This document shows positions 19,088-37,462 of a stretch of 64,000 nt of DNA, piece after piece. Location: positions 1,117-65,116 of the forward strand of contig JAXGTH010000001.1 in the NCBI GenBank assembly GCA_040775045.1, given 5' to 3'. The notes below the pieces were generated by a model. It was not told the DNA's origin. It did no database searches and saw only the letters and a program-made list of their open reading frames with translations. Every line of letters begins with the position of its first letter. The stretch's first letter is position 1. The translations under genes and the position numbers were made by a program. Source of the DNA: Bacteroidales bacterium. Its GTDB lineage: Bacteria > Bacteroidota > Bacteroidia > Bacteroidales > B18-G4.

Positions 19088-22000
19088 ATGACCTATCAGA
19101 AGCCCATGGAAGAGCACAGCAAGCAGGATAAAGATCTTAAAAGACTACAGGCCGAAGCCCACGAACGGCTCAAGGAACTGGCCGCCATCAACCAGACCAC
19201 ACAGATCCTAACAGAAGGGAAAAGCATAGAAGAAACTCTTGGCAAACTGGTCGATATCCTTCCTCCTGCATGGCAGTACCCTGAATATACTGCTTCGCGG
19301 ATCACTTTTGGCGACCTGGAATTTACCAGCCGGAATTTTGTACCCACCAGCTGGGTGCAGAAGCAGTCGTTCGAAACCATCGACGGCATCAAGGGGAACA
19401 TCGAGGTCTATTACCTGCGTGAGTTCCCCGAACTTGACGAAGGCCCTTTCATGAAGGAAGAAAGGCACCTGATCAACAACCTGGCGGGGCTGATCACAGG
19501 CTACCTGAACAGCATCAAGGGCAAGAGCCTGCTCAGCAAGGAGCGCGACCGTATCCTCGAGGGCAATACCCGCAAATCGGTAACAACGCCTCTGGTCCAC
19601 AGCAGGCAGCTGCTTCAGAAATTTCTCAACAAGAGTAATTACGACCGTGACATATACCACGACCTGATGCCTTTCAAGGTGAAGGAGATCCTGCTGGTGG
19701 CCACCCTGTACGATGCCTACAGCATCGAAAAGGAAGGCCGGTTCTCCGAACACGTCCTGGGAGAATATCACCAGCTGAACCTGACTTCCGTCCCCAGGAT
19801 CACCGGGGTTTCCAATGAACAGGAAGCCATGGAGCAATTGCGGACAAGGCATTTCGACCTGGTGATCCTCATGATGGGAGCCGACAAGAAATCGCCCATG
19901 GCCCTGAGCTGCCAGATCAAGAACGAATATCCCTATATACCCGTCTTCCTGTTGCTCAACAACAACAGCGACATCGAATACGTGATGAAACGCAAGGCGT
20001 CCACGCAACATATCGATAAGGTCTTCGTCTGGAACGGCGAGTCGAAGGTGTTCTTTGCCATGATCAAGCACGTGGAGGACAAGATCAATGCAGAGAACGA
20101 CACCAGCGTAGGAATGGTCAGGGTGATCCTCCTGGTTGAGGATTCGCCCCAGTACTACTCCCGGTACCTGCCCATGCTCTATAATATCGTGCTCGAACAG
20201 ACCAAAAGGATCATCGACGATGTAAGTACGGACGAACTTTACAAGGTACTGAAACTCAGGGCCAGGCCTAAGATACTGCTGGCTTCAACCTTTGAGGAGG
20301 CCAAAGAGGTGATCGACAATTACAGGGATTACCTGCTCTGTCTTATCACCGACGTTAAGTTCCCGAGGAATGGGGAAGAGGACGAGGATGCTGGCCTCGA
20401 ACTGGTGAAATATGCCCGCAAAGCCATTAAGGACCTTCCCACGATCATACAATCCTCCGATGAGTCGGTGCTCGAGAAAACTTACAAGCTGAAAGCGACT
20501 TTCATCAACAAGAACTCGGAAACCCTGTCGCAGGATTTCAGGAGTTTTATCACGCACTACCTGGGATTCGGGAATTTCGTCTACAGGAACGAGAAGGGCA
20601 AGATCTTCGGGGTGGCCAGGTCGCTGAAGGAATTTGAAAAACAGTTGCAGACCATCCCTGATGAGTCGCTGCTGCATCATGCCAAAAAAGACCATTTTTC
20701 ACTGTGGCTCATGGCAAGGGGTGAAGTGCAGGCTGCAAAGATCCTCAATCCGCATAAGGTAAGTGATTTCAGCAGCCCGCAGAAGGTACGCGAATACATG
20801 CTTGAGATCATCACGAAATTCAGGAACGAGCAGGACAGGGGCAAGATCATTCCTTTCGACAAATCAGCCATCTCCGACGAATCCAATATCGTTTCCCTCA
20901 TGGAAGGATCACTCGGGGGGAAGGGCCGTGGCATCGCTTTTATCAACACGCTGATCTACAATTATGAGTTCAGCCAGTATGTGCCCGATATCCATGTTAA
21001 AGCGCCCAAAACCCTGCTGGTCGGCACGGAGGAGTTTGAATATTTCATGGGGCGCAACAAGCTTTACGATCTGGTGCTCAACGAGATGGATTATACCGTT
21101 GTCAAGAAGGAGTTTCTCAGGGCACCCCTCACCGATACCCTGGTGAAAAGGCTGAAGATCGTTCTGGAAGATATCCGTAAACCCCTGGCGATTCGATCGT
21201 CGGGGTTGTTCGAGGATTCCCTCGTACAACCCTTTGCCGGGATTTTCGAGACCTACATCCTGCCCAACAGTCATCCTGACCCCAGGGTTCGGCTTGAGCA
21301 GGTGATGGACGCGATCAGGCTTGTTTATGCGAGCGTATATTCCGAAACGGCCAGGGGTTATGTCAAGGCCATAAACTATAAGATCGAGGAGGAAAAGATG
21401 GCCGTTGTGATCCAGGAAGTGGTAGGCAATCATTACGGGCGTTATTTTTACCCTCATATCAGCGGGGTGGCCCAATCTTATAATTATTACCCGGTTTCGC
21501 ACATGCAGCCCGAGGAAGGCTTCGTGGTGGCAGCGATAGGCCTTGGCAAATACGTGGTGGAAGGGGAGAAGGCATACCGTTTCTCTCCGAAGTATCCCGA
21601 GATCGATATCAACAGTCCCAAGGACCAGTTCAAGAATTCGCAGGTACAGTTCTTTGCCGTGGATATGGAGAAGACCGAGCCAAACCTGCTCGAAGGCGAT
21701 ACGGCAGGCCTTGCCAGGCTCGACATCGATGATGCCGAGCAACACGGTACCTTGAAACATTGTGCATCGGTATTCAACCCGGACAACAACCAGATCATCC
21801 CGGGGCTGACGCATCAGGGCCCGCGCATCGTTAATTTTGCCAATATCCTCAAGTACGGGTATATCCCGCTGGCAAAGACCATAGAGGTGGTGCTTGATGT
21901 GGTGAAGGAAGCACTCGGGTCACCGGTGGAGATCGAATTTGCCATCGACCTGAACAAGGACAGGAGCGGTCTGGCATCTTTCTATCTGCTGCAAATAAAG

Positions 22001-22767: not shown

Positions 22768-23631
22768 ATGAGCTACGAACTGATCTCTCTCAAACTTAAA
22801 TGTCCTGTTTGCGGGAAATCGCTGATGGATAGTGAACACCTGGTGGACAACGAACCCAGCATTTACCTGAATGTAAAAATGGCAGGGAAAAGCGGTGAGA
22901 TACGCCTGAGTTCGATCTATGGCAGTTATAATTACACGACCAATATCGAGATGCCGAAGGGTGAGGTGGCAGAATTTTACTGCCCGCACTGCAGCGCAGA
23001 GATTACCTCGGATGTCGAGTGCCTGAGTTGCAGGGCCCCCATGGTACCTTTTTACCTGGATATGGGTGGGAAGGTGACCATCTGCTCGAGGAGCGGATGC
23101 AAGAACCACTTCGTCGAGTTCGAAGATCTCTCCGTGGCCCTCAGGAAATTATACCAGGAATACGGGCTTGCCGGAAAAGACAGTTTCAGGCCCGACAGGG
23201 ACAGGGTCAGGGCGGAACAACCCGTTGATGAGGAAAAGGAGATCCTTGAATCGGGCACTTATCTGAATTCCTATTGCCCGCATTGCCACAAGAGCCTGAT
23301 CGAGGAAAATATGCTGAAGCTGAAAATACACAACGGGGAGGAGGGTTTCCTTTTATTAAGCCCGTACCTCAATGTATTCACCAGCAAGTCGACCATCTTT
23401 CTCGAAGAGGACAAGGCATTAAAGGATGTGCGTTGCTGGCATTGTGGAAAAAGCCTTATCCCTGAACAAAAGTCATGTGGCAAATGTGGTTCCGATGTCG
23501 TCAAGATAGAGGTCAGTGCCCGCACCAAACTGATCGATTTTTATATCTGTACCAAAAAGGGTTGCCGCTGGCACGGGCTCAGCGACGATGATTATTACGA
23601 TATCCGTTTGCAGGACAGCCTTGAATGGTGA
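22768..23631 (+). CDS. Cys-rich protein made of two tandem ~125-aa 8-Cys zinc-ribbon/rubredoxin-like modules
   Basis: Module 1 carries CPVC..CPHC..CLSC..CSRSGC. Module 2 carries CPHC..CWHC..CGKC..CTKKGC. Module 2 aligns by eye with the N-terminus of the NfnB-like protein. Confidence 0.7.
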   Translation: MSYELISLKLKCPVCGKSLMDSEHLVDNEPSIYLNVKMAGKSGEIRLSSIYGSYNYTTNIEMPKGEVAEFYCPHCSAEITSDVECLSCRAPMVPFYLDMGGKVTICSRSGCKNHFVEFEDLSVALRKLYQEYGLAGKDSFRPDRDRVRAEQPVDEEKEILESGTYLNSYCPHCHKSLIEENMLKLKIHNGEEGFLLLSPYLNVFTSKSTIFLEEDKALKDVRCWHCGKSLIPEQKSCGKCGSDVVKIEVSARTKLIDFYICTKKGCRWHGLSDDDYYDIRLQDSLEW

Positions 23632-23657
23632 GCATGGTATAACGAAATCTTGTTCTT

Positions 23658-24482
23658 ATGTTCCAGATCGTCAGAAAACAGGAAATGGCCAGGGGAACGA
23701 TCATACGTTTCGACCTGAGTGCCCCGAAGATCGCCAAAAAGGTCAAAGCCGGGCAATTTATTATCCTGAGGGTGAACGAAACCGGTGAGCGTATTCCCCT
23801 TACTGTTGCGGATAAGGACGAATTTGCCGGCATCATTACCATCATCTTCCAGGTGGTCGGTAAGACTACGGCCTTGATGCGCTCGCTTAACGAGGGCGAC
23901 CTGATCAGGGACGTGGTAGGCCCCCTCGGGAAACCGGCTCATGTCGAAAAGGTGGGAACCGTGGTGATGGTGGGCGGCGGGACAGGTGTAGCCATCCTCC
24001 ACCACGTGGCCAAAGCCTTTAAGGAAGCCGGCAATTTCGTGATCAGCATCGTCGGTGCCCGCGACAGGGAAATGCTTATCCTGGAGAATGAGATGAAGCA
24101 GATCAGCGATGAACTGGTGGTCACGACCGACGACGGCAGCTATGGTGAAAGGGGATTCGTTACGGATCCGCTGAAAAAGTACCTCGACGAACGCTACGAC
24201 ATCAAGCTTGTGTATGCCATCGGGCCCATCATAATGATGCAGAATGTGGTGAAACTGACAAAAAAGTACAAGATGCCCACCATGGTCAGCCTGAACCCCA
24301 TCATGATCGACGGTACGGGAATGTGTGGCGGCTGCAGGGTTAAAGTCGGCGACAAGGCCCAGTTCTGTTGCGTCGATGGCCCCGATTTCAATGGCTTCGA
24401 AGTTGATTTCGAAGAATTGATCAACAGGAATTCACTTTATCTGAAAGAAGAGAAAGACTCACTGCTTTTCTCGATCAGGTAA
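23658..24482 (+). CDS. nfnA: NfnA/SudB-type subunit (FAD/NAD(P)-binding, PyrK-like, 2Fe-2S)
   Basis: 'RIPLTVAD', 'VMVGGGTGVA' and the C-terminal 'GMCGGCRV...FCCVDGP' cluster motif. Confidence 0.85.
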   Translation: MFQIVRKQEMARGTIIRFDLSAPKIAKKVKAGQFIILRVNETGERIPLTVADKDEFAGIITIIFQVVGKTTALMRSLNEGDLIRDVVGPLGKPAHVEKVGTVVMVGGGTGVAILHHVAKAFKEAGNFVISIVGARDREMLILENEMKQISDELVVTTDDGSYGERGFVTDPLKKYLDERYDIKLVYAIGPIIMMQNVVKLTKKYKMPTMVSLNPIMIDGTGMCGGCRVKVGDKAQFCCVDGPDFNGFEVDFEELINRNSLYLKEEKDSLLFSIR

Positions 24483-24500
24483 TATCATAAAGCATTTGCC

Positions 24501-26330
24501 ATGTTAGACCAGGATGTTAAATACCTAAAATTTAAGACCTATCTTAATACTTACTGTCCGCATTGCCACGAGAGTTTCAATGTTGAAAAAAAGGACCGTA
24601 AGCAGATCAATTTTAAAGCGGTATATAAAAACGAAGACATCGACCTGGTCCTCAGTCCCTATCTCGACGTTTTTGAGGTGGAGGCCTCCACTGAGATTAT
24701 CCTGGGTGATACTGTCGATGATATCAAATGCCCGCATTGTGGCAAAAGTTTGATCCATAAGGATATGCCATGTGGAGAATGTGGTTCTCCGGTTGCCGAG
24801 GTGATCGTGTCGGCAGCTTCACGGCTCATCCCGTTTTTCCTCTGTTCCAAATATGGTTGTGAATGGCATGGGCTGAGCAAACGCGACGAGCGGCATATCA
24901 AGCTGAAGATCCCGAGGCAGGAGATGCCTGAGCAGGATCAGACCCTTCGCGTGCACAACTGGCAGGAAGTGCCATACGGTTATACCTCCGAACTGGCCCT
25001 GCTGGAGGCGGGCCGGTGCCTGCAGTGTAAAAAGCCTATGTGTGTTGAGGGTTGCCCGGTAAATGTCGACATCCCTTCGTTCATTGCACTCGTGGCCGAA
25101 GAGAAATTCAATGATGCGGCCAAGAAGATCAAGGAAAGGAATGTTTTTCCCGCCATCTGCGGCCGGGTCTGCCCCCAGGAGAGCCAGTGCGAATCGAAAT
25201 GCGTGCTGGGCCATAAGGACCAGCCTGTGGCTATCGGAAGGCTTGAACGTTTTGTTGCCGATTATGAACGTAAGATGGACCTGGTAAATGTTCCGACCAT
25301 CACAGAGAATACAGGCCAAAAGATCGCAGTGGTGGGTTCGGGCCCGGGAGGTCTCACAGTGGCTGCCGACATGCGGCAACTGGGTTACAGCGTTACGGTT
25401 TATGAGGCCCTTCATGAAACGGGAGGCGTGCTTACCTATGGCATCCCCGAGTTCAGGCTGCCCAAATCCATCGTGCAGTTCGAGATCGAGTACCTGAAGC
25501 AAATGGGTGTTCGCTTCGAGCTCAACCACGTGATCGGCAATATCCTCACCGTTGATGAATTGCTCGAACATTTCGATGCCGTCTTTGTAGGTGTAGGAGC
25601 AGGATTTCCCTTGTTCATGGGACTTGAGGGCGAAAGCCTGGGTAGCGTCTTTTCAGCCAATGAATATCTCACCCGGATGAACCTGATGAAGGCCTACCGC
25701 TTCCCTGAATACGACACTCCCATGCCTAAAGGGCACAAGGTGGTGGTGGTCGGTGGCGGCAATGTGGCCATGGACTGCGCACGTACCGCTGCACGATCGG
25801 GGGCCGATGAAGTGACCATCGTGTACCGCCGCTCACGGCATGAACTTCCCGCCAGGGCAGAGGAGGTACACCATGCTGAAGAGGAAGGGATCAGATTCAA
25901 ACTGCTGACCAACCCTGTCAGGTACATCGGTACCGACAATAACAAGGTAAAGGCGGTTGAATGTATCAGGATGGAACTGGGCGAGCCGGACGCCTCAGGG
26001 CGGAGACGCCCTATCCCCATACAGGATTCGAACTTTACGATTGAATGCGACATGGCCATCGTGGCTATCGGCAATGGCCCCAATCCCATCATCTTCAACT
26101 CAACCCCCGATATGGAACTCAACAAATGGGGCTATATCAAAACAGATCCCGAAAGCAATGAAACTACAAAGGCTTTCGTCTATGCGGGCGGCGATATCGT
26201 TACAGGTTCGGCTACGGTGATCCAGGCCATGGGTGCCGGAAGGATAGCTGCAAATGCCATGCATGAGCGACTGACTGCCATACGTGAAAAAAAGAAAAAA
26301 CCTGCCCCGAAGAAGAAGACCGTTAAATAG
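24501..26330 (+). CDS. nfnB: NfnB/SudA/GltD-type subunit with an N-terminal zinc-ribbon module fusion and a Lys-rich tail
   Basis: Residues 1 to ~140 carry CPHC..CPHC..CGEC..CSKYGC. The GltD core follows: 'CLQCKKPMCVEGCPVNVDIPSFI', 'ICGRVCPQE..CE..C', 'VAVVGSGPGGL', 'VVVVGGGNVAMDCART'. The tail reads 'REKKKKPAPKKKTVK'. Confidence 0.85.
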   Translation: MLDQDVKYLKFKTYLNTYCPHCHESFNVEKKDRKQINFKAVYKNEDIDLVLSPYLDVFEVEASTEIILGDTVDDIKCPHCGKSLIHKDMPCGECGSPVAEVIVSAASRLIPFFLCSKYGCEWHGLSKRDERHIKLKIPRQEMPEQDQTLRVHNWQEVPYGYTSELALLEAGRCLQCKKPMCVEGCPVNVDIPSFIALVAEEKFNDAAKKIKERNVFPAICGRVCPQESQCESKCVLGHKDQPVAIGRLERFVADYERKMDLVNVPTITENTGQKIAVVGSGPGGLTVAADMRQLGYSVTVYEALHETGGVLTYGIPEFRLPKSIVQFEIEYLKQMGVRFELNHVIGNILTVDELLEHFDAVFVGVGAGFPLFMGLEGESLGSVFSANEYLTRMNLMKAYRFPEYDTPMPKGHKVVVVGGGNVAMDCARTAARSGADEVTIVYRRSRHELPARAEEVHHAEEEGIRFKLLTNPVRYIGTDNNKVKAVECIRMELGEPDASGRRRPIPIQDSNFTIECDMAIVAIGNGPNPIIFNSTPDMELNKWGYIKTDPESNETTKAFVYAGGDIVTGSATVIQAMGAGRIAANAMHERLTAIREKKKKPAPKKKTVK

Positions 26331-26478: not shown

Positions 26479-27036
26479 ATGAAAATACACCGGGCCATAG
26501 GTATTTTACTTCTCCTGGCGGGAATGGCGTTCGTCATTTCATGCTCCAGTAACGACGACCCTGTCTATACCGAAAAGAAACCCACCGCCCTTGAGGTGAT
26601 CAATGCGCAGGGGGTGAGTGTTCCGGTGTATGATTTTGAGGGCTTCAGCCCCATGCTGGATTATTACAACGATACCCTCTATGTGTTTAACTTCTGGGCT
26701 ACCTGGTGCCAGCCCTGCGTGAAGGAAATGCCTTACTTCAACATGGCAGACTCGGCCTATGCCGGTATGCCGGTACGCATCGTGCTGGTCAGCCTCGATT
26801 TTACCGAAAATGTTGAGGATGTGCTGATCCCCTTCATCCTGGAAAAAGAGCTGCGGCCTGAGGTGATCGTGCTTGATGACCCCGATGCCAACAGCTGGAT
26901 ACCCGAGATCGATCCCTCCTGGGAAGGAGCCATACCGGCAACGCTGTTTTTCAAGATGAAAAAGCGCAAGTTCATGAACCAGGCCTTCACCTATGAGGAA
27001 CTTTCAAATGAAATTGACGAACTATTAAAACCTTGA
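26479..27036 (+). CDS. Lipoprotein, TlpA/ResA-like thiol:disulfide oxidoreductase
   Basis: Lipobox 'FVISCSS' and thioredoxin motif 'FWATWCQPC'. Confidence 0.75.
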   Translation: MKIHRAIGILLLLAGMAFVISCSSNDDPVYTEKKPTALEVINAQGVSVPVYDFEGFSPMLDYYNDTLYVFNFWATWCQPCVKEMPYFNMADSAYAGMPVRIVLVSLDFTENVEDVLIPFILEKELRPEVIVLDDPDANSWIPEIDPSWEGAIPATLFFKMKKRKFMNQAFTYEELSNEIDELLKP

Positions 27037-27040
27037 TAAT

Positions 27041-27646
27041 ATGAAAACTACAGTAATATTTTTCCTTTCCATGATCATCACCTCCTCCATGGCCTTTGCC
27101 GGCGGGTATGAGGTGGGCGACAAGGCCGGCGACTTCACCCTCAAAAATGTCGACGGCAAAATGGTTTCACTGACCGATTATCCCGAGGCCAAAGGTTTCA
27201 TCGTGATCTTTACCTGTAACCACTGTCCTTATTCAAAGCTTTATGAGGACCGCATCATCGCCCTCGACGCTAATTACAGGGACAAGGGGTTCCCGGTCAT
27301 TGCCATCAACCCGAACGACCCGGCCGTACAGCCCGAGGACAGCTACCCGCTGATGCAGGTGAGGGCAAGGGAAAAGGGTTTCACCTTCCCGTATCTTTTT
27401 GATGAGACCCAGGATGTAGCCAGGGCGTACGGGGCCACCCGGACACCGCACGTTTTTATCCTCTCCATGGATGAAGGTGACCTGATCGTAAAATACATCG
27501 GGGCCATCGACAACAACAGCAAGAGTGCTGCCGAAGCCAGCGAGAAATATGTTGAGGATGCCCTGAACGCCCTCCTCAGCGGCAACGATCCCGCAGTGAA
27601 TTATACCCGGGCTGTCGGATGCACGATAAAGTGGAAAGCGGACTGA
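27041..27646 (+). CDS. Exported thioredoxin-fold (redoxin/AhpC-TSA-like) protein
   Basis: A signal peptide is followed by 'IVIFTCNHCPYS' (CxxC). Confidence 0.75.
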   Translation: MKTTVIFFLSMIITSSMAFAGGYEVGDKAGDFTLKNVDGKMVSLTDYPEAKGFIVIFTCNHCPYSKLYEDRIIALDANYRDKGFPVIAINPNDPAVQPEDSYPLMQVRAREKGFTFPYLFDETQDVARAYGATRTPHVFILSMDEGDLIVKYIGAIDNNSKSAAEASEKYVEDALNALLSGNDPAVNYTRAVGCTIKWKAD

Positions 27647-27652
27647 CCTGCC

Positions 27653-27682
27653 GACCTCACAGGTCGCCCGACCTGTGAGGTC
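27653..27682 (+). terminator. Perfect 14-bp-stem hairpin after the thioredoxin genes
   Basis: GACCTCACAGGTCG-CC-CGACCTGTGAGGTC lies 7 nt after the stop codon. There is no T-tract. Each arm is itself a small palindrome. Confidence 0.5.
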
Positions 27683-27860
27683 AGGTCGAAGCCATTTGAC
27701 ATATATCTGACAATATTTTCAATTCCCCTGCCTTCTGTTTTGCAGACCAAGTTTTATATCAATTCATTATCTTCATTATCAGTCACATATATTCCTTATT
27801 CGGGGCAATTTAGACCATATATAAATTATGGGGTTTAAAGGGCTGGCATGAAACATTTTA

Positions 27861-27868
27861 TAAATTTG
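27861..27868 (+). promoter_or_regulatory. Candidate -7 box TAAATTTG for the nuoE-like operon
   Basis: It matches TAnnTTTG and lies 25 nt upstream of ATG 27893. Confidence 0.45.
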
Positions 27869-27892: not shown

Positions 27893-28411
27893 ATGCGGAT
27901 TGAAAGAATAGATGTGAAGCGGGAAACCGACGAGCAGGCTGCGGTCGATACCGGGTTGCTCAACCCCCTGATCGATAAGTATAAAAACCAGAAAGGAAAT
28001 CTCATTCCCCTGCTCCAGGGGGCGCAGGATATCTACGGTTATATCCCGCGCGAAGCTTTTGAAAAACTTTCGGCCGAAACCGGGATACCCCTCAGCGAGA
28101 TGTACGGGGTAGCCACCTTTTATGCGCAGTTCAGGCTGAAACCTGTTGGAAAGCATATCATAAAGGTTTGCCACGGCACAGCCTGCCATGTCCAGAATGC
28201 CAAATCGATCACAACTTCCCTGAAGGAGGCCCTCAAAGTGGACGACGGCGGAACCACGGAAGACGGGCTCTTCACCCTCGAGTCGGTAGCATGCCTGGGT
28301 TGCTGCTCCCTGGCACCGGTCATGATGATCGGCAACGAAACCTACGGCAAGCTTACAGGTGCCCAGGCTGTGAAGATCGTAAAGAACATCAGGATCAGTG
28401 AAAACAATTGA
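27893..28411 (+). CDS. NuoE/HydC/HndA-like thioredoxin-like [2Fe-2S] subunit
   Basis: 'LIPLLQGAQD', 'KVCHGTACH' and 'VACLGCCSLAPVMM'. Confidence 0.9.
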   Translation: MRIERIDVKRETDEQAAVDTGLLNPLIDKYKNQKGNLIPLLQGAQDIYGYIPREAFEKLSAETGIPLSEMYGVATFYAQFRLKPVGKHIIKVCHGTACHVQNAKSITTSLKEALKVDDGGTTEDGLFTLESVACLGCCSLAPVMMIGNETYGKLTGAQAVKIVKNIRISENN

Positions 28412-28437
28412 TTTGACAACACTTTTGAAACAATAAT

Positions 28438-30213
28438 ATGGAAACAAAAGTAATCGTTGGTCTCGGAAGTTGCGGCATCGCTGCCGGAGCGGGAAAAGTG
28501 TACGACAAGATAGCGGCCATCAAAAAAGCGGAGAACCTCACCTTCGAATTGAAAAAGACCTCGTGTATCGGTATGTGTTACCGGGAGCCGCTGGTCGAGA
28601 TCATCGACGATTCGGGAAGGTACCTTTACGGCGATATCGACGAAGAGCGCATCATTGAGGTGATCGATAAGCATGTCGGGCAGCAGAATCCCGTGAAGGA
28701 ATTCGTGGTGCAGTCGGACCTCTTCGAGACCGTCGACAACGAATATACCAACGACCAGGTGAAGATCGCCCTCCGTAACTGCGGGTATATCGATCCGGAG
28801 AGTATAGAGGAATACGAGGCCAGGGACGGATACCGTGCCATCCGCAAGATCGCGGGACATGGCATGTCGAGGCTCGATGTGATCCAGGAAGTCATCGCTT
28901 CGGGCCTGCGCGGCCGAGGGGGCGGGGGCTTCCCGACAGGGTTGAAATGGAAATTTGCGAACAACAACAAAGCCGATGAAAAATATATCATCTGTAATGC
29001 CGACGAGGGCGATCCCGGTGCTTTCATGGACCGTTCCGTGCTGGAGGGCGATCCCCACTCGGTGCTCGAAGGGATGATCATCGGGGCATACGCCATCGAG
29101 GCTACCGGCGGGGTGATCTATTGCCGTGCCGAGTACCCGCTGGCCATCAAACGCCTTCGCATTGCCATCGGGCAGGCCCGCGAAAAGGGCTACCTGGGGA
29201 AGAACATCCTCGGGATCGAGGGCTTCAACTTCGACATCTATATCAAGGAGGGTGCCGGGGCATTTGTGTGCGGGGAGGAAACCGCACTGATCGCCTCGGT
29301 AGAGGGCCAGCGCGGCATGCCACGCAAGCGTCCGCCCTTCCCGGCTGCTTCAGGATTGTGGAAGAAGCCCACCAACATCAATAACGTGGAAACCTTTGCC
29401 AACATTCCCTGGATCATCCAGCACGGGGCTTCCGAATATGCCAGGTACGGTACGGAGAAGAGCAAGGGCACCAAGGTATTTGCCCTGGCCGGCAAGATAA
29501 AGCGTTCAGGGCTGGTGGAAGTGCCCATGGGCATGAGCATCAGGGATGTGATCTTCAAGCTTGGCGGAGGGATTCAGGATGACAAGGAATTCAAGGCCGT
29601 GCAGATGGGCGGACCCTCGGGGGGCTGCATCCCGGCACACCTGGCCGACACCATCGTCGATTATGACTCGGTGAATGCCACCGGCGCCATCATGGGTTCC
29701 GGCGGGATGGTCGTGATGGACGAAACTACCTGTATGATCGACGTGGCCAAATTCTTCCTCGACTTCACGCAGAAGGAATCCTGCGGGAAATGTACCTTCT
29801 GCCGCATAGGCACCAAACGTATGCTGGAGATCCTTACAAGGATCACTGAAGGGAAAGGTGAAGAGGGCGACATCGAAAGGCTGGAGGAACTGGCTTACCA
29901 GATCAAGGACAACTCGCTTTGCGGCCTTGGGCAGACAGCTCCCAACCCGGTGCTCACCACCATAAAATACTTCAGGGATGAGTATGAGGCCCATATCCGG
30001 GATAAAAAATGCCCGGCCCACGTCTGCACCAACCTGCTCACCTATACCGTCGATGCCGAAAAGTGCACGGGCTGTACCGTATGTGCCAAAAATTGCCCGG
30101 TAGAGGCCATCAGCGGCGAGCGTAAGGAGGTCCACTTCATCGACCAGGAAAAATGCATCAAGTGCGGTGTGTGTTACACCAAATGCAAGTTCGACGCCAT
30201 AATCTTATCATAA
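28438..30213 (+). CDS. NuoF/HydB/HndC-like NADH-binding FMN/FeS subunit (N-terminal 2Fe-2S domain, C-terminal 2x[4Fe-4S])
   Basis: 'GRGGGGFPTGLKWKF' (FMN site), 'ESCGKCTFCR', 'CTGCTVCAKNCP' and 'CIKCGVCYTKC'. Confidence 0.9.
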   Translation: METKVIVGLGSCGIAAGAGKVYDKIAAIKKAENLTFELKKTSCIGMCYREPLVEIIDDSGRYLYGDIDEERIIEVIDKHVGQQNPVKEFVVQSDLFETVDNEYTNDQVKIALRNCGYIDPESIEEYEARDGYRAIRKIAGHGMSRLDVIQEVIASGLRGRGGGGFPTGLKWKFANNNKADEKYIICNADEGDPGAFMDRSVLEGDPHSVLEGMIIGAYAIEATGGVIYCRAEYPLAIKRLRIAIGQAREKGYLGKNILGIEGFNFDIYIKEGAGAFVCGEETALIASVEGQRGMPRKRPPFPAASGLWKKPTNINNVETFANIPWIIQHGASEYARYGTEKSKGTKVFALAGKIKRSGLVEVPMGMSIRDVIFKLGGGIQDDKEFKAVQMGGPSGGCIPAHLADTIVDYDSVNATGAIMGSGGMVVMDETTCMIDVAKFFLDFTQKESCGKCTFCRIGTKRMLEILTRITEGKGEEGDIERLEELAYQIKDNSLCGLGQTAPNPVLTTIKYFRDEYEAHIRDKKCPAHVCTNLLTYTVDAEKCTGCTVCAKNCPVEAISGERKEVHFIDQEKCIKCGVCYTKCKFDAIILS

Positions 30214-30236
30214 ACGAAAATCAAAGGACCAGCATA

Positions 30237-33200
30237 ATGAGTGAAAAGGTAAATGTTATACTGAACGGAAAGATCGTTCCCGGTATCAAGGGGGAAACCA
30301 TCCTCCAACTGGCCAAACGAAACGGGATCGAAATACCTACCCTTTGCAACGACCCCCGGCTTGAACCCTACACCTCGTGTTATGTTTGTGTGGTGGAGGT
30401 GGAAGGTCTCAGGGGCCTCCAGCCTTCATGCTCCACGAAGATATCGGAGGGGATGCGGATCGAAACGCATAACGAAAAGATCGCCGGAGCCAGGAAAACC
30501 GCCCTCGAACTGATCCTGAGCAATCATTATGCCGACTGTATCGGGCCATGCAAGCAAACGTGTCCGGCAGGTGTTGATGTCCAGGGGTATATCTCGCACA
30601 TCGAAAAGGGACAATACCACGATGCCGTGGCACTCATCAAGGAAACGAATCCCCTGCCCGCCATTTGCGGCCGTGTATGTGTGCGCCCGTGCGAGGTGGC
30701 ATGCCGCCGCAACCTGCTTGATGAAACTTCTCCTGTCGGGATCGACTACCTGAAACGCTTCGCGTCGGATTACGACCTGGAATCGGAAAATAAATGGAGA
30801 CCTCAGGTCAAGCCTGAAACTGGCAAAAAGGTTGCCATCATCGGTGCCGGCCCGGGAGGCCTCTCTGCCGCCTTCTTCCTGCGGAAGGAAGGCCACGATA
30901 TCGACATCTTCGAAGCCAGCCCCAAAGCGGGCGGATGGCTGAGGTACGGCATCCCTGAATATCGCCTGCCCAACGATATCCTGCAGAAAGAGGTTGACAA
31001 CATCACGGAAATGGGTGTACGCATCCATTATAAGAAACGCCTGGGTGATAACCTTAAATATGCTGACCTGCAAAAGAAATACGATGCCGTGGTACTTGCC
31101 ATAGGTTCGCAGAAAGGGACCATGATCGGGGTGGAAGGTGATGATGCCGAGCATGTCTTTTCAGGGATCGACTTCCTCAAGGAAATGGAGATGACCGGGA
31201 AACGATACGACTTCACTGGCAAAAGAGTTGCCGTGGTGGGCGGTGGGAATACCGCCATGGACTGCTGCCGTACTTCGATGCGTTGCGGTGCCGAAAAGGT
31301 ATTTGTCATCTACCGGCGTACCGAAAATGAGATGCCTGCCAACCCCATCGAAATCCATGAGTCGAAACTCGAAGGAGTGGAATACATGCTCCTCACCAAT
31401 CCGGTGAAGATCAACAAATCAAAGGACGGCAAGGTAAGGTCGGTCACCTGCCTGAAAATGGAACTGGGCGAACCTGATGCTTCAGGGAGGAGAAGGCCCG
31501 TGCCTATCCAGGGTTCGGAATTCGACCTGGAGGTTGATTTTGTGCTGGCCGCCATCGGGCAAAAGACGGATGTTGATTTCACCGACGACATGAACAAGGC
31601 CGTGAAGAAGGGTGAACTCAAGCTGAATCGCTGGGGCGATATCGATGCCGATCCGAAAACCTTGCAAACCGGTGTCGAGAACGTATTTGCCGCCGGGGAT
31701 AGCGTAACAGGCCCTGCCACACTGATCCAGGCCATCGGGCAGGCCAGGATCGCAGCCCACAGCTGCGACCTCTATCTTCGTGGTGAGGAGGTCAGTCCCT
31801 TCCCTTATGAATTCTTCAGCAGGCGCGACAACTTCAAGACACAGGTTAAGGAAGATTATACCGGGAAATACAGCAAGCAGGAGCGGGAAGAAATGCCCAC
31901 CCTCGACCCAAAGAAAAGAAAGAATTTCAAGGAGGTGGAGCTGGGATATGAAAGTGAGGAGGTGGCTAGACATGAAGCGCTGCGCTGCATGGAATGCGGA
32001 TGTACGGAGCTGTATACCTGCGACCTGAAAAAATATGCCACCGAATACCAGGCCCGCCAGGAAGGAGTGAGGGGCGAATATAAGGAATACGGGGTTGATT
32101 TCCGGCATCCTTTTGTCGAGATCGACAACAACAAATGCGTACTGTGTGCCCGCTGCGTCAGGATATGCCGCGATGTGGTCGGGGCCAATGCGCTTGGCCT
32201 GGTCAACAGGGGCTTCGACACCTTTGTTGCCCCCAGCATGGGCAACACATTGCAGGATACCATGTGTGAAAGCTGTGGCATGTGTATCAGCACCTGTCCG
32301 ACCGGAGCGATAACCGAGAACGTTCCATTCAAACCCGGCCCGGTAAGGCTCGAAAAAGTACAGGGCATCTGCAACTTCTGTTCCATCGGGTGTGAACTCG
32401 ACTATGAACACAAAAGCGGTTTCGTGATGCGTGTCGAAGGTCGCGACGGCCGTGTGAATGCCAACGGCAACCTTTGCAAGTACGGCAAGTTTGGTTATAA
32501 AAACCTGAACGACAAGTCGCGCCTGACAAAACCCATGATGAAGATCAACGGACGGTTCGAGGAGATCGGTTTCGATGAGGCATTCAGCATCATGGCTGAG
32601 AAAATTAAGTCCGTCGCACCCGACGACAATGCCTTCTTTGCCGGTGCACGGCTGAGCAATGAGGAGCTGTACCTGATCCAGAAGCTGGCCCGGGCCGGTG
32701 CCGGGACCAATAATGTAACATCTTTCCATTACCTGAACAGGGGGATGGGTTATGCGGGCAATTCAAGGGCGAACGTCCCCTTTACACAGTTAAAGGACGC
32801 CAGCAGGATATACCTGATCGGGGCGGAATTGAACCGCGATAATCCCGTCCTGGGCTTCATGGTGAACAATGCGAAGGTGATGCATCATGTCCCCGTTGAG
32901 CTCGTTACTGTTCATGACCCGAGCAGCATGGAGCACAAGGCCGGCAAGACGCTGAAAGTTAAGTCATATTACCATTTCATCAAGGCAGTGAACTACTACC
33001 TCGTGGCCAACAATTTCCATAACGGGCTCTTCATCGGCGATCTTTGTGAAGGTTTTGCAGCATACAGGGAAGACCTGCTGAAAGAAAATTTCGTCGATCT
33101 CATCGAAAAGTCAGGGGTGCAGTTCATGGACAGTGTTATCGAGTTTGCCAAGGCATACAACAATGAGCTGAATGCCGTGATCATCTTTTCCGAGAAAGAA

Positions 33201-33935
33201 CTGTGTTCAAATGCCTGCAGCGAGCTGTTTAATCTTGCCATGATCACCGGAAAGCTTGGGAAAACGGCCAACGGGCTGGTGAGCATCAAGGAAAAGAACA
33301 ATGCTCAGGGTATCTTCGATATGGGCATTTGCCCTTTGCTGGGAGTAGGCGGCATTGATATCCTCGACAAGAAACTCCAGGCGGGCATGAAAAAACTCTG
33401 GAAGGTGAAATCACTGCCTTCGGATGTTAATGCCAGCCAGTACGAGAGGCTTGAAAAGGGTAAGCTGAAGAACCTGTTCATCTTTGGTGAAGACCCGCTG
33501 GGGTGTACCAACGACAAGGTCAAGGTGGCCGGCTGGCTTACGGTAGCCGATTTTGTGGTGGTAATGGACTATTTCATGACCGGAACCGCGGCCCAGGCCG
33601 ACCTGGTGCTACCGGCAAGCTTCCCCTTTGAGTCGGGTGGTACCTTCACCAACACACAAAAGGTGATTCAGCACTTTGAGGCCGGTTTCGAGCCGGAAAA
33701 CGGGATGACTACACTGGAACAGCTGGCCATGCTGATGAAACACCTCGACATTCAGCAGGAAAGCACTCCGGATTCCGTGATGGCAGAGATCACAAAACTG
33801 CTTCCCGGGACAGATATCGACGGGAAGTACGCCTTTGCGACCACCAGGGAAACGAACAACTGCCATATGTTCGATCACGGCTGCGATCATATCGTGAAGT
33901 ATTTTGATGATGAATTCAACAACGCCTTTAAATAA
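30237..33935 (+). CDS. 1232-aa fusion subunit: NuoG-type N-terminal [2Fe-2S], inserted GltD/NfnB-like FAD/NAD(P)H module, [4Fe-4S] region, and a truncated molybdopterin-oxidoreductase-like domain without catalytic Cys/Sec
   Basis: The start is set at ATG 30237 ('MSEKVNVILNGK') after the nuoF-like stop. Motifs in order: 'LCNDP..SCYVCVVEV..SC'; 'CIGPCKQTCPAGVDVQGYI', 'ICGRVCVRPCEVAC', 'VAIIGAGPGGL', 'VAVVGGGNTAMDCCRT'; 'CVLCARCVRIC', 'CESCGMCISTCP', 'CNFCSIGC'. The FdhF 'CCARVUHGPSV' position reads 'TSFHYLNRGMGY'. Confidence 0.85.
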   Translation: MSEKVNVILNGKIVPGIKGETILQLAKRNGIEIPTLCNDPRLEPYTSCYVCVVEVEGLRGLQPSCSTKISEGMRIETHNEKIAGARKTALELILSNHYADCIGPCKQTCPAGVDVQGYISHIEKGQYHDAVALIKETNPLPAICGRVCVRPCEVACRRNLLDETSPVGIDYLKRFASDYDLESENKWRPQVKPETGKKVAIIGAGPGGLSAAFFLRKEGHDIDIFEASPKAGGWLRYGIPEYRLPNDILQKEVDNITEMGVRIHYKKRLGDNLKYADLQKKYDAVVLAIGSQKGTMIGVEGDDAEHVFSGIDFLKEMEMTGKRYDFTGKRVAVVGGGNTAMDCCRTSMRCGAEKVFVIYRRTENEMPANPIEIHESKLEGVEYMLLTNPVKINKSKDGKVRSVTCLKMELGEPDASGRRRPVPIQGSEFDLEVDFVLAAIGQKTDVDFTDDMNKAVKKGELKLNRWGDIDADPKTLQTGVENVFAAGDSVTGPATLIQAIGQARIAAHSCDLYLRGEEVSPFPYEFFSRRDNFKTQVKEDYTGKYSKQEREEMPTLDPKKRKNFKEVELGYESEEVARHEALRCMECGCTELYTCDLKKYATEYQARQEGVRGEYKEYGVDFRHPFVEIDNNKCVLCARCVRICRDVVGANALGLVNRGFDTFVAPSMGNTLQDTMCESCGMCISTCPTGAITENVPFKPGPVRLEKVQGICNFCSIGCELDYEHKSGFVMRVEGRDGRVNANGNLCKYGKFGYKNLNDKSRLTKPMMKINGRFEEIGFDEAFSIMAEKIKSVAPDDNAFFAGARLSNEELYLIQKLARAGAGTNNVTSFHYLNRGMGYAGNSRANVPFTQLKDASRIYLIGAELNRDNPVLGFMVNNAKVMHHVPVELVTVHDPSSMEHKAGKTLKVKSYYHFIKAVNYYLVANNFHNGLFIGDLCEGFAAYREDLLKENFVDLIEKSGVQFMDSVIEFAKAYNNELNAVIIFSEKELCSNACSELFNLAMITGKLGKTANGLVSIKEKNNAQGIFDMGICPLLGVGGIDILDKKLQAGMKKLWKVKSLPSDVNASQYERLEKGKLKNLFIFGEDPLGCTNDKVKVAGWLTVADFVVVMDYFMTGTAAQADLVLPASFPFESGGTFTNTQKVIQHFEAGFEPENGMTTLEQLAMLMKHLDIQQESTPDSVMAEITKLLPGTDIDGKYAFATTRETNNCHMFDHGCDHIVKYFDDEFNNAFK

Positions 33936-33945
33936 ATAACAGGAA

Positions 33946-34401
33946 ATGAAAGATCTGACAACATTTGATACCATACTCGATTTTGCCATTGAGGAAGAAC
34001 AGAAAGCGGTGGATTTCTATTCAGAACTTGCCGGACAGGCATCTTCCGACGATATGCGTCTTGTATTCGAGGAATTTGCACAAGAGGAGGTCAGGCATAA
34101 GACGAAACTCATGGAGGTGAAGGAAACAGGCATGACCAACATGCCGCCCGAGAATGTTGCCGACCTTAAGATCGCCGATTATACAGTCAATGTAAAGCCA
34201 ACGCCCGGCATGTCATACCAGGAGGCACTGGTCGTGGCCATGAACAAGGAAAAGGCTGCTTTCAGGCTCTACACTTCATTATCGCAAAGGGCTGATGATC
34301 CGGTGCTTAAAGAGCTTTTTGCCGCTCTTGCCCAGGAGGAATCAAAGCATAAACTGAGGTTCGAGGTGGAATATGATGAGTATGTGCTGAGGGAGAATTA
34401 A
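33946..34401 (+). CDS. Rubrerythrin/ferritin-like di-iron four-helix protein
   Basis: It has two E...ExxH pairs: 'EEEQKA...QEEVRHK' and 'NKEKAA...QEESKHK'. Confidence 0.7.
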   Translation: MKDLTTFDTILDFAIEEEQKAVDFYSELAGQASSDDMRLVFEEFAQEEVRHKTKLMEVKETGMTNMPPENVADLKIADYTVNVKPTPGMSYQEALVVAMNKEKAAFRLYTSLSQRADDPVLKELFAALAQEESKHKLRFEVEYDEYVLREN

Positions 34402-34411
34402 TAAGCTTGCC

Positions 34412-34450
34412 AATTAGGCCGCCAACCTTTTGAAGGTTGACAACCTAATT
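34412..34450 (+). terminator. Two-tier hairpin after the rubrerythrin-like gene
   Basis: AATTAGG-ccgc-CAACCTT-ttg-AAGGTTG-acaa-CCTAATT. Confidence 0.5.
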
Positions 34451-34452
34451 CG

Positions 34453-34460
34453 TACCTTTG
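34453..34460 (+). promoter_or_regulatory. Candidate -7 box TACCTTTG for the second REC/ATP-grasp gene
   Basis: It matches TAnnTTTG and lies 27 nt upstream of ATG 34487. Confidence 0.4.
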
Positions 34461-34486
34461 TCCCGGATAATTCACAATCAGATTAA

Positions 34487-37462
34487 ATGGCCGGGCCCAG
34501 CACCAACCTATCGAAGCATTTTTTTCACGACACTTCATTCGATACGCTGATGAAAAAGCGTATCTACCAAGTCCTGCTCATTTCCAGCGCCTATGATGCA
34601 TTCATCCTCGAAGAGGATGGCCGTATCGATGAGCAGATCTTCAACGAATACGTTTCGCTCAACCTTCGGTACCCGCCTCAATTCATCCAGGTGACCAAGG
34701 AAGAAAAAGCCTTCAGGGAGCTGGAGGAAGAGAATATCGATCTGGTCATCACCATGCTTAGTGCCGAAGACGAGGATACTTTCGGCATCGCCAAGAAGAT
34801 CAAAAAGAAGTATCCCAACATCCCCATTGTGGTGCTTACCCCTTTCTCGCGCAAGGTTTCGGTGAAACTCGACCAGGAAGACCTCGGCGCCATCGATTAC
34901 GTCTTCAGCTGGTTGGGCAATGCCGATCTCCTGCTGGCCATCATCAAGCTGATCGAGGACAAGATGAACGTGGAGCATGATGTGAATGAGGTGGGCGTGC
35001 AAACCATCATCCTGGTTGAGGATTCGGTGAGGTTCTATTCAAGCTACCTGCCGCACATTTACAAGATCATCTTCAAGCAATCGCAGGAGTTCATGACCGA
35101 GGGACTGAACGAGCACCAGCAGATGATGAGGATGCGCGGACGCCCAAAGATACTGCTGGCCAGGACCTATGAGGAAGCGCTTGGTTTTTATGAGAAATAC
35201 AAGAACAACCTGCTCGGGATCATTTCAGATCTCGCCTACTTGCGTAAGGGGGTCCACGACAGGGAAGCCGGTTTCCGTCTTGTAAAAAAGGTCAAGGCAG
35301 AAGACAACCTGATGCCGATCCTGCTGCAATCGTCGGAAGCCGGTGCGGCAGAGGTTGCCAAGGAACTCAGGGTGGGTTTCATCAACAAGCAGTCCAAGAC
35401 CATCTCCATCGAACTTAAAAATTTTATATCGGCATATTTCGCTTTCGGCGATTTTGTTTTTATCGATCCCGATACCATGGAGGAGATCGATCGCGCTCCG
35501 GACCTCAAGACCCTGCAGCGGAAGATCCACAAGATCCCCGACAAATCGCTGGTTTACCATCTTTCGCGGAACCATATCTCGAAATGGCTGAGGGCACGTG
35601 CGCTCTTCCCCCTTGCCGAGCGTTTCAGGGATGTGACCCTCGACGATTTCGATGACCTCAGCGAAGTGAGGAAGTATCTCTTCGATTCCATTGGGAATTA
35701 CCGTATGACCAAGGCCCGGGGCGTGATCGCGGAGTTCCGGCGCGACAGTTTCGATGAATATCTTTCCCTGTCGCGCATTGGGGAAGGATCTCTTGGAGGA
35801 AAGGCCCGCGGACTGGCATTCCTCGATTCCATGATCAAACGAAACCATTTTTACGACCGGTGGGAAGGGGTGAGGATATCAATCCCGAAAACCGTAGTGC
35901 TGGGTACCGACATCTTCGACCAGTTCATGGAAGAGAATGACCTTTACAAGGTGGCCATGTCGAACCTTACCGATGGCGAAATTCTGCAGAAATTCGTTGA
36001 GGCACGCCTGCCGTTCAGGATCAAGGAAGATCTGTATACCCTGATCTCCTTCCTCAAGAACCCACTGGCGGTAAGGTCGTCGAGCCTTCTCGAAGATTCT
36101 TACTACCAGCCCTTTGCAGGGATTTACAACACCTATATGATCCCGAACCTCGAGTCGGACGAGAGAAGAATGATGGAAATGCTTACCGAAGCCATCAAAA
36201 GCGTGTATGCATCCGCATACTATAAGGACAGCAAAGCCTATATGGCCGCCACCTCCAATGTGATCGACGAGGAGAAGATGGCCATCGTGCTGCAGCAGGT
36301 GGTGGGCAGGAGATATGCCAACAGGTTCTACCCTGTGATCTCCGGTGTGGCGCGGTCGATCAACTTCTATCCCATCGAGCCCGAAAGGCCTGAAGACGGT
36401 ATCGTGAATATCGCCCTCGGCCTGGGGAAGTATATCGTGGATGGGGGCATGACCCTGCGGTTCAGTCCCAAATACCCCAAAAAGGTGCTCCAGACCAGTA
36501 CGCCAGAGCTGGCCCTTCGCGAGACCCAGCGCATCTTCTATGCCCTCGACCTGATGGCCGACAGTTTCAAGCCATGTATCGATGATGCTGTTAACCTGCT
36601 TAAGCTGAGAGTGTCAGAAGCAGAGAAGGATAAGTCGATCAGGTATGTCGCCTCCACCTATGACTACCAGAGCAAGATGATCCGTGATGGCACTGCCACC
36701 GAAGGGAAGCGGCTGATCACCTTTTCGGCTATTCTTAACCATGATGTCCTTCCACTGGCCGACATCCTGCGGGTGGTGCTCGAAACCGGGCAGAGGGAGA
36801 TGGGTAAACCCATCGAGATCGAGTTTGCTGTCGATGTGAACCCCGTGAAAGGGGAACCGCATATCTTCCACCTGCTCCAGATCAGGCCAATCGTCGACAG
36901 TGACGAGACCGTGGATGTTGATATTGAAGGGATTGATGCCCGGAATTCACTCATGGTCAGCAATTCGGCCCTTGGAAACGGCTATATCCGGGATATCCGC
37001 GATATCGTTTATATCAAGCCGGAAAGTTTCGATTCGGCGCGCACCCTCGAGATCGCTGAACTGATCGGACAGGTCAATGACCGTTTCCTGGCCGAAGGCA
37101 AAAACTATATCCTCGTAGGTCCTGGCCGCTGGGGCTCTGCTGACCCGCACCTCGGGATCCCCGTTAAATGGCCGCAGATATCCGCTGCCAGGCTGATCGT
37201 GGAATCCGGACTGGAAGACTATCATATCGATCCCAGCCAGGGGACCCACTTTTTCCAGAACCTGACCTCCTTCAGGGTGGGATACTTCACCATCAACCCC
37301 TTCTTCAACGAGGGAAGCTATGATATTGGTTTCCTGGAAGCCCGCGAAGCCATTTATGAAGATGACTTTGTCAGGCATGTCAGATTTGATGATCCATTGC
37401 TGATCGCCATCGACGGTAAGAAGAACAAAGGGATGGTAATGAAGCCGGGGACCACATCCTGA
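34487..37462 (+). CDS. 991-aa paralog of 19088-22564: degenerate receiver, receiver, PPDK_N-type ATP-grasp, conserved C-terminal domain (lacks the ~165-aa N-terminal region)
   Basis: 'IILVEDS', 'LLGIISDLAY', 'GSLGGKARGLAF', 'PLAVRSSSLLEDS..PFAGIYNTY', 'LVGPGRWGSADPHLGIPVKWPQIS' and 'GTHFFQN'. It is colinear with the first copy over its whole length. Confidence 0.8.
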   Translation: MAGPSTNLSKHFFHDTSFDTLMKKRIYQVLLISSAYDAFILEEDGRIDEQIFNEYVSLNLRYPPQFIQVTKEEKAFRELEEENIDLVITMLSAEDEDTFGIAKKIKKKYPNIPIVVLTPFSRKVSVKLDQEDLGAIDYVFSWLGNADLLLAIIKLIEDKMNVEHDVNEVGVQTIILVEDSVRFYSSYLPHIYKIIFKQSQEFMTEGLNEHQQMMRMRGRPKILLARTYEEALGFYEKYKNNLLGIISDLAYLRKGVHDREAGFRLVKKVKAEDNLMPILLQSSEAGAAEVAKELRVGFINKQSKTISIELKNFISAYFAFGDFVFIDPDTMEEIDRAPDLKTLQRKIHKIPDKSLVYHLSRNHISKWLRARALFPLAERFRDVTLDDFDDLSEVRKYLFDSIGNYRMTKARGVIAEFRRDSFDEYLSLSRIGEGSLGGKARGLAFLDSMIKRNHFYDRWEGVRISIPKTVVLGTDIFDQFMEENDLYKVAMSNLTDGEILQKFVEARLPFRIKEDLYTLISFLKNPLAVRSSSLLEDSYYQPFAGIYNTYMIPNLESDERRMMEMLTEAIKSVYASAYYKDSKAYMAATSNVIDEEKMAIVLQQVVGRRYANRFYPVISGVARSINFYPIEPERPEDGIVNIALGLGKYIVDGGMTLRFSPKYPKKVLQTSTPELALRETQRIFYALDLMADSFKPCIDDAVNLLKLRVSEAEKDKSIRYVASTYDYQSKMIRDGTATEGKRLITFSAILNHDVLPLADILRVVLETGQREMGKPIEIEFAVDVNPVKGEPHIFHLLQIRPIVDSDETVDVDIEGIDARNSLMVSNSALGNGYIRDIRDIVYIKPESFDSARTLEIAELIGQVNDRFLAEGKNYILVGPGRWGSADPHLGIPVKWPQISAARLIVESGLEDYHIDPSQGTHFFQNLTSFRVGYFTINPFFNEGSYDIGFLEAREAIYEDDFVRHVRFDDPLLIAIDGKKNKGMVMKPGTTS

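Follow-up and report, generated by a model that had tools for sequence, protein, structure and literature searches.

Glutamate dehydrogenase as a recurrent genomic partner of a receiver/ATP-grasp protein family, viewed from a Bacteroidales redox locus

Within a 64,000-nucleotide stretch of contig JAXGTH010000001.1 from a Bacteroidales bacterium (assembly GCA_040775045.1; hereafter the window), two related proteins, A (19088-22564, plus strand, 1158 residues) and B (34487-37462, plus strand, 991 residues), bracket a series of redox genes. We find that A and B belong to a large, unstudied family of receiver/ATP-grasp proteins that is genomically coupled to glutamate dehydrogenase (GDH), often one-to-one with GDH classes, and in some lineages also to NADPH-producing transhydrogenases. 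The reading that we favour, and to which we give about an even chance, is that A and B are receiver-controlled, ATP-dependent regulators of GDH and of NADPH-linked ammonium assimilation.

A and B are colinear paralogs, as a first-pass annotation of this DNA had proposed from shared motif blocks, each of which we find in both translations. BLASTP aligns A183-1150 with B6-979 at 37% identity and 61% positives (976 aligned residues, 10 gaps, E = 0). Two alignments of family members, of 14 and of 100 sequences, together with an AlphaFold model of B (AF2, mean predicted local distance difference test score (pLDDT) 79), give the domain order as pseudo-receiver, receiver, DUF5752-like linker, PPDK_N ATP-grasp domain and C-terminal domain. 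The first receiver-like domain is a pseudo-receiver, with an invariant Met (M90 in B) at the position aligned to the phospho-Asp of CovR and YycF. The second carries E178/D179, D248, S282/S283 and K301 in B, and E351/D352, D422 and K475 in A; of these, D248, S282 and K301 (B numbering) do not vary among 100 sequences of the A and B types, and D252, K305 and H925 are invariant in an alignment of the outgroup members described below. Receiver scores stay under the Pfam gathering cut-off (29.8 bits for B and 21.1 for A versus 30.2). The linker resembles DUF5752 weakly in A and B, and some homologues pass the cut-off of that model. Foldseek searches with the N-terminal half of B return PleD as top matches, and also single receiver (REC) domains. 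Like PleD, A and B place tandem receiver folds, one apparently phosphorylatable and one degenerate, ahead of an enzymatic output; they differ in order, the pseudo-receiver preceding the receiver where PleD has the reverse, and in output, which is an ATP-grasp domain rather than a GGDEF cyclase.

The ATP-grasp label that the first-pass annotation gave to this output is correct, since PPDK_N (PF01326) matches A608-976 (E 2e-36) and B435-814 (E 9e-41). The nucleotide-binding motifs (GGKxRG, RSSxLxEDS, EIEFA and LQIRP in residues 435-814 of B) are intact and conserved, and they align to the nucleotide-binding region of rifampin phosphotransferase. The same enzyme (5hv1, E 3.6e-13) is the nearest Foldseek match to the catalytic half of B, which also retrieves HpeI (9goj), and its ATP-grasp domain is the only match of the family profile in the PDB. 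A and B are therefore like the phosphoenolpyruvate (PEP)-utilising dikinases (RPH, PEP synthase and PPDK) in having PPDK_N with GGK, RSS..ED..FAG, E.E and LQ.RP motifs, but profile and fold matches of the family stop at the ATP-grasp domain. Unlike those enzymes, A and B have no swivel phospho-His domain (PF00391, none at Pfam E <= 0.01) and, by Pfam, neither the PEP/pyruvate TIM barrel (PEP-utilizers_C) nor a rifampin-binding domain; they have N-terminal receivers and a 175-residue C-terminal domain without a PDB match. Because the swivel His domain and the substrate domain are both missing, A and B are not PEP synthases or PPDKs. Databases name the family either 'PEP/pyruvate-binding domain-containing protein' or 'phosphoenolpyruvate synthase', and the second name is a widespread misannotation.

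The C-terminal domain (residues 812-991 of B) contains an invariant GPGRWG motif and an invariant His (H921 in B, H1092 in A), the latter in a flexible loop with a model pLDDT of about 62-64. Modelled alone, the domain reaches a pLDDT of 88, and its best match in the PDB, where structures of PPDK, PEPS, RPH and EI were included, has only E 0.03 and probability 0.28. We considered that it might be a divergent swivel phospho-His domain, given a G-T/S-H-F-F motif, and rejected this for want of any Pfam or PDB match.

A has in addition an N-terminal module of its own (about residues 25-145, window 19160-19520), which occurs in one to four tandem copies in orthologues (P0150, P0219, P0323, P0344) and follows the motif ERLKEL..IN.TT....P.AWQYPE....RI....F..T.W..Q.F.TID...G.IE..YL......EGPF..EER.LI.N. 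Pfam and PDB sequence searches with this module gave no match, and it is probably an undescribed sensor domain; the same searches gave no confirmation of a GAF identity. Orthologues of A are widespread (53-91% identity). The family as a whole comprises more than 8000 database clusters in the search with B and more than 5000 in that with A, and about 1000 clusters at 50% identity, from several phyla, score E <= 1e-30. Three members of 1520-1650 residues (P0251, P0269, P0305) are natural fusions with two catalytic modules in one polypeptide: one is B-like and REC-less, the other is more divergent, and a single A-type N-terminal sensor module is joined to them.

The coupling to GDH is visible in the window itself, just beyond the interval that the first-pass annotation had singled out. 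Divergent from A, on the minus strand at 17561-18916, lies gdhA, predicted to encode a GDH of the NADP-specific class (Pfam ELFV_dehydrog_N and ELFV_dehydrog), which passes the NCBIfam equivalog NF006929 (PRK09414) with 774 bits versus a cut-off of 536. To see its relatives we scanned one genome per species and scored the 80 B-type loci obtained by tblastn with every window protein; these relatives, like all those used below, are metagenome-assembled genomes (MAGs) or metagenome contigs, with flanks of 7-10 kb. Unbiased clustering of the neighbouring open reading frames (ORFs) places GDH as the most frequent neighbour family in Bacteroidales (26/80 loci). It occurs divergently upstream of A and also co-directionally downstream of B, the latter with or without A, and the minus-strand GDH, plus-strand A order of the window recurs at eleven loci (L005, L008, L019, L021, L069, L075, L076, L080, L081, L129 and L136). 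Next in rank is the 2-oxoacid:ferredoxin oxidoreductase pair KorAB, whose genes immediately precede A, in the same orientation, at 24-25 loci. We discount this second association because it belongs to a long stretch of conserved housekeeping gene order in a single clade and because the outgroups show no recurrence of it. That block runs BamA, OmpH, OmpH, a glutamate racemase-like gene, KorA, KorB, A and B, followed on the minus strand by FabD, FolE and PTPS (L029, L045, L048, L051 and about 20 other loci).

The GDH association extends well outside Bacteroidales, to outgroup phyla in which the family member is usually a lone one with a GDH gene as its immediate neighbour. Outgroup members, whose lineages are named by their sources as Planctomycetota, Aminicenantes, Acidobacteriota and Thermoanaerobaculia, have the same architecture and are about 40% identical to each of A and B, equidistant from the two. 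Among annotated outgroup contigs GDH is adjacent or one gene off in 2/4, and the link is seen in a Phycisphaerae MAG and in another distant genome. A metagenome scan with the outgroup alignment added 80 further loci. In the outgroups GDH stands immediately upstream on the same strand in 29/58 loci, and it is adjacent on either side in 23 of the 42 (55%) for which both flanks are available; it is near the family member in 46 loci, with every other family at <=6, and is thus the only strongly recurrent neighbour. When the family is collapsed at 55% identity, 10 of the 21 clusters hold a GDH-adjacent member.

These counts bear on whether there is any functional link at all. The neighbourhoods could be inherited synteny or chance, with the paralogs acting elsewhere. 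Indeed, about half of the loci have neither GDH nor redox neighbours, and the BamA-OmpH-MurI-KorAB-A-B-FabD-FolE block shows that synteny can persist without a common function. We nevertheless consider this explanation very improbable, as GDH adjacency recurs across phyla and in lineages with no other common neighbour; by our own rough estimate, from 1-3 GDH genes in a genome of several thousand, adjacency by chance would be well under 1%.

Furthermore, the GDH genes next to family members are of distinct classes. Beside A the class is PRK09414, named 'NADP-specific', and downstream of B in relatives it is PRK14030. Two outgroup loci are arrays: L120 consists of a family member (992 residues), a GDH (453), a second family member (1002) and a GDH-like protein (433), all co-directional, and L158 of a family member, a GDH, a GDH-like gene and a short REC-less family member, again in one direction. 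The second GDH in such outgroup arrays is of the archaeal type. The different GDH classes beside A and B, together with the arrays, suggest one family member per GDH isoform. We also considered genes BT1970-BT1973 of B. thetaiotaomicron as a possible gdhA-A-B-gdhB cluster, and set this example aside on finding BT1971 described as a catalase (PMC12596196).

The pairing of members with GDH classes also helps to judge a reading in which the family are metabolic enzymes and not regulators, namely receiver-gated dikinases or ligases of small molecules at the 2-oxoglutarate/glutamate node, sharing a pathway with GDH. The closest relatives of the catalytic domain (rifampin phosphotransferase, HpeI, PigC/RedH and PEP synthase) all phosphorylate small molecules, and the family is co-localised with GDH and, in one clade, with 2-oxoacid:ferredoxin oxidoreductase. 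Yet A and B lack a swivel His domain, nor can a substrate domain be recognised in them; the one-to-one pairing with different GDH classes and the alternating arrays suggest partners of particular enzymes more than steps of a single pathway, and the KorAB adjacency sits in the housekeeping block of a single clade. We regard this reading as unlikely.

The first-pass annotation had concentrated on the genes between the paralogs, proposing that A and B control, or modify after translation, the enzymes of NAD(P)H/ferredoxin balance that they flank, and it had taken conservation of the bracket in relatives as the test of that proposal. Its description of a redox-only, same-strand gene set agrees with the Pfam and NCBIfam matches: the plus strand carries all eleven genes from A through B, and the nine in between are all redox-related. 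The bracket itself is not broadly conserved. Of the B loci, one per species, 65 extend 4 kb or more upstream of B. In 28 of these (43%) A and B are direct neighbours, 39-256 bp apart, and in two they are separated by redox genes (Stn genes in L018 and Nfn genes in L021, both described below). Four others have redox genes 5' of B, A being out of range, and the remaining 31 have neither A nor redox genes near B. The closest relative (L001, 83% identity) keeps the island. At 71% identity (L002-L004), B has no redox genes nearby, and only the downstream GldN, M16 and methyltransferase genes are kept. L008, whose A orthologue is 66% identical, has a compact arrangement in which a divergent GDH and A are followed by NuoE, NuoF, fusion and rubrerythrin genes and then B; in L007 an A orthologue stands alone beside a true PPDK, and in L020 Stn genes lie directly upstream of B with A not seen.

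In a quick neighbour-joining tree of B orthologues, basal clades carry a divergent GDH, A, B and a co-directional GDH, a large clade has KorA, KorB, A and B, and the redox-associated loci are confined to the clade of the window, interleaved with loci of B alone. The ancestral Bacteroidales arrangement therefore appears to be gdh of the NADP class, divergent from A, with B and gdh of the second class downstream of A and co-directional with it. Because the tandem pair is basal and redox-split pairs occur only in the clade of the window, the bracket most likely arose secondarily, by the splitting of a tandem pair. In the window A keeps its divergent NADP-class GDH and B is without a GDH neighbour; B in this lineage has lost it. 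At L005 (14028-17258), A is separated from the Zn-ribbon/Nfn genes by an opposite-strand gene for a 1076-residue cadherin-like protein with a type IX secretion system (T9SS) sorting domain, an insertion which implies that the A-B gap repeatedly receives insertions.

The nine intervening genes are predicted to encode, among others, two different transhydrogenases that interconvert NADH plus reduced ferredoxin and NADPH. The first is of the NfnAB (NfnSL) type: a small FAD/NAD-binding 2Fe-2S subunit, NfnA (23658-24482, plus strand; Pfam DHODB_Fe-S_bind and NAD_binding_1; PRK06222, 384 bits versus a cut-off of 220), and a large GltD-like subunit with two predicted 4Fe-4S clusters, NfnB (24501-26330, plus strand; Fer4_20 and Pyr_redox_2; TIGR01316, 583 bits versus 472), in adjacent genes 18 bp apart. 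Both exceed the NCBIfam cut-offs for NfnA-like and GltA/NfnB-like proteins. Unlike in known NfnSL/NfnAB systems, NfnB has an extra Zn-ribbon module, and the pair is preceded by a standalone gene for a multi-Zn-ribbon protein with six CxxC pairs (22768-23631, plus strand; Pfam Zn_Ribbon_1/DZR). The standalone protein is internally duplicated, and the extension at the N-terminus of NfnB, about 130 residues long (24501-24920), matches the C-terminal half of that protein at 42% identity (E 2e-36), so this NfnAB variant has the Zn-ribbon module both fused and free. The Zn-ribbon protein is conserved alongside NfnAB in L005, where the whole trio is present.

The second transhydrogenase is encoded by what the first-pass annotation had described as a NuoE/NuoF/GltD-NuoG-like trio. 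The gene content stands, and full-length PDB matches identify the genes more precisely as StnABC/NfnABC, members of the Bfu family of electron-bifurcating NADH/ferredoxin:NADP+ transhydrogenases (PMC10482914, PMC12018979, PMC7483475). All three solved subunits, including those of Sporomusa ovata StnABC (8oh5), are matched over their full length by contiguous plus-strand genes (27893-33935) with gaps of 10-26 bp: a StnA/NfnC-like, NuoE-type 2Fe-2S subunit (27893-28411; 9bov_C 1.8e-55, 9n5u_C 'NfnC' 5.7e-52, 8oh5_A 1.5e-47), a StnB/NfnB(Bfu)-like, NuoF-type FMN/NADH subunit (28438-30213; 8oh5_B 5e-263, 9bov_B 1.3e-257, 9n5u_B 'NfnB' 2.1e-256) and a StnC/NfnA(Bfu)-like fusion of 1233 residues (30234-33935; 9bov_A 1.2e-241, 8oh5_C 4.5e-231, 9n5u_A 'NfnA' 5.2e-197). 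The modules of the fusion are, in Pfam order, 2Fe-2S, GltD-like NADP(H), NuoG-like Fe-S clusters and molybdopterin-fold. Its longest ORF starts at 30153, with a 61-nt overlap with the preceding gene; ATG 30234 is the likely start, as PDB alignments begin at residues 5-7 and orthologues have 1233 residues. Judged by these matches, NfnAB-type and Stn/NfnABC-type transhydrogenases coexist at one Bacteroidales locus, side by side, which differs from the known StnABC and NfnAB systems.

The remaining genes of the island encode two exported TlpA/ResA-like thioredoxin-fold proteins and a rubrerythrin/ferritin-like protein. The thioredoxin-fold proteins (Pfam AhpC-TSA/Redoxin/Thioredoxin; NCBIfam ResA/TlpA matches weak) are a CQPC protein with a lipoprotein-type signal peptide (26479-27036, plus strand) and a CNHC protein with a signal peptide (27041-27646, plus strand). 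The rubrerythrin-like protein (33946-34401, plus strand, 151 residues; Pfam Rubrerythrin E 2e-15) follows the Stn genes in L001, L008 and L010 as well and is missing in L018. Downstream of B, a gene for a DUF559 protein (Vsr-like endonuclease fold; 37505-37867, minus strand) is bracketed by 35-nt inverted repeats (37464-37498 and 37921-37955, 97% complementary). This unit (37464-37955) is missing in L001, where a GldN-like gene directly follows B, and it looks like a small inserted cassette.

Transhydrogenase genes do recur around the family. The A-B gap holds Stn genes without Nfn genes in L018 and L008, Nfn genes without Stn genes in L021, and the two sets together in the window and L005; in five outgroup loci of one lineage GDH is followed by the family member, NfnA and NfnB, all co-directional. 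This recurrence argues for selection for co-localisation, and it is the evidence on which the proposal of NfnAB and Stn as the targets of A and B could draw. Such genes are near a family member, however, in only 6/65 Bacteroidales species loci and 5/78 outgroup loci; GDH is about 5-10 times more frequent as a neighbour and the only strongly recurrent one in the outgroups, and relatives at 71% identity have B and no redox genes nearby. We consider NfnAB and Stn distinctly unlikely as the targets. What persists of the first-pass proposal is a link of A and B to pyridine nucleotides, with GDH rather than the bracket at its centre. The neighbouring GDH, assigned to the NADP class by sequence model, has NADPH as its coenzyme, and supply of this NADPH is probably the reason why the transhydrogenase modules were recruited to the locus.

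The first-pass annotation had also divided the locus by two hairpins and by predicted -7 boxes. All four elements exist, but the hairpins, which it had called terminators, are without a T-tract. One (27653-27682, plus strand) directly follows the stop codon of the second thioredoxin-fold gene and has a perfect, GC-rich 13-bp stem (GACCTCACAGGTC GCCC GACCTGTGAGGTC); the RNA fold of 27648-27700 gives -30 kcal/mol. It may serve as a terminator or to stabilise RNA, or be a repeat element. The other (34412-34450, plus strand) lies between the rubrerythrin-like gene and B. Neither has the T-run that follows the GC-rich hairpin in a canonical intrinsic terminator, and a terminator scan that requires one calls neither. 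The Bacteroidota -7 boxes, TAAATTTG (27861-27868, plus strand) and TACCTTTG (34453-34460, plus strand), lie about 25 nt 5' of the NuoE-like gene and about 27 nt 5' of B, respectively; both are of the TAnnTTTG type, a motif with only 21 occurrences on the plus strand of the window. Scans for sigma-70 promoters and for terminators returned counts equal to the shuffle expectation and are uninformative for Bacteroidota.

In the reading that we favour, each family member would be a dedicated ATP-dependent regulator of its own neighbouring GDH. A histidine kinase would phosphorylate the receiver Asp (D422 in A, D248 in B) and thereby turn the ATP-grasp domain on or off, and in A the N-terminal sensor module would switch it additionally. 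The ATP-grasp domain would then spend ATP, possibly via the invariant His of the C-terminal loop, which may act as a phospho-carrier, to modify GDH covalently; some other ATP-dependent control of GDH is the alternative to this step. The most specific form of the proposal, in which the family are receiver-gated enzymes that covalently modify GDH, one per isoform, through a new phospho-His C-terminal fold, is possible but doubtful; they would then be to GDH what GlnE is to glutamine synthetase.

Several observations weigh against the favoured reading. In each lineage the flanks of about half the loci lack GDH, whose adjacency is therefore frequent, not obligatory. We know of no PPDK_N-type ATP-grasp enzyme that modifies proteins; the known PPDK_N relatives phosphorylate small molecules or glucans via the swivel His domain that A and B are missing, and Pfam and PDB comparison of the C-terminal domain gives no functional clue. 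No histidine kinase is consistently encoded near family members in the Bacteroidales or outgroup neighbourhoods, and no cognate kinase was identified. Within the window, the hairpins and the -7 box of B's own suggest several transcription units, so that the genes there may not be co-regulated. The tree is a quick neighbour-joining one, gene calls at the loci are based on tblastn and ORFs, and literature searches on the family, on DUF5752 and on receiver-PPDK_N proteins returned nothing relevant.

As regards signalling genes, NarL/GerE-type response regulators lie within a few kb of members at L002-L004, L007, L012, L038, L077, L118 and other outgroup loci, and at L002-L004 a HAMP/HisKA_3 histidine kinase is encoded beside the regulator; this kinase is a possible lead to the cognate one.

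Without a consistent kinase neighbour, the phosphate could also come from within the protein. In such a self-contained phosphorelay the ATP-grasp domain would phosphorylate the C-terminal His, which would pass the phosphate to the receiver Asp of its own chain or of the partner paralog, the pair acting as an ATP- or energy-sensing module. The invariant His in its loop of about 62-64 pLDDT, the canonical receiver Asp in the same chain and the normal transfer of phosphate from PPDK_N domains to a His are all consistent with this. The C-terminal domain, however, is unlike any phospho-His carrier fold, the receiver occupies the N-terminal position that is usual for an input, and REC-less short forms and REC-less fusions exist, from which it follows that the catalytic module can work without a receiver. 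We consider such a relay decidedly improbable.

Regulators of the kind proposed in the favoured reading have functional counterparts elsewhere. GlnE adenylyltransferase acts on glutamine synthetase, and PknG-GarA/OdhI controls GDH and 2-oxoglutarate dehydrogenase. As in these systems, A and B would be ATP-using, signal-responsive regulators dedicated to a central enzyme of ammonium assimilation; they are unrelated to these systems in sequence and fold, and the analogy concerns function alone.

GDH is the main entry of ammonium into biomass in many anaerobes, Bacteroidales included, and its post-translational control is not understood for these phyla. In Bacteroides, GDH is reversibly inactivated, by a mechanism for which we know of no explanation; a literature search on this inactivation in Bacteroides returned nothing relevant. 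The family described here is a testable candidate regulator that would join two-component signalling, ATP, NADPH supply and ammonium assimilation. If its members do modify GDH covalently, they could account for the inactivation of the Bacteroides enzyme, and GDH modification of this kind would be at work in several phyla, Bacteroidota, Planctomycetota and Acidobacteriota among them.

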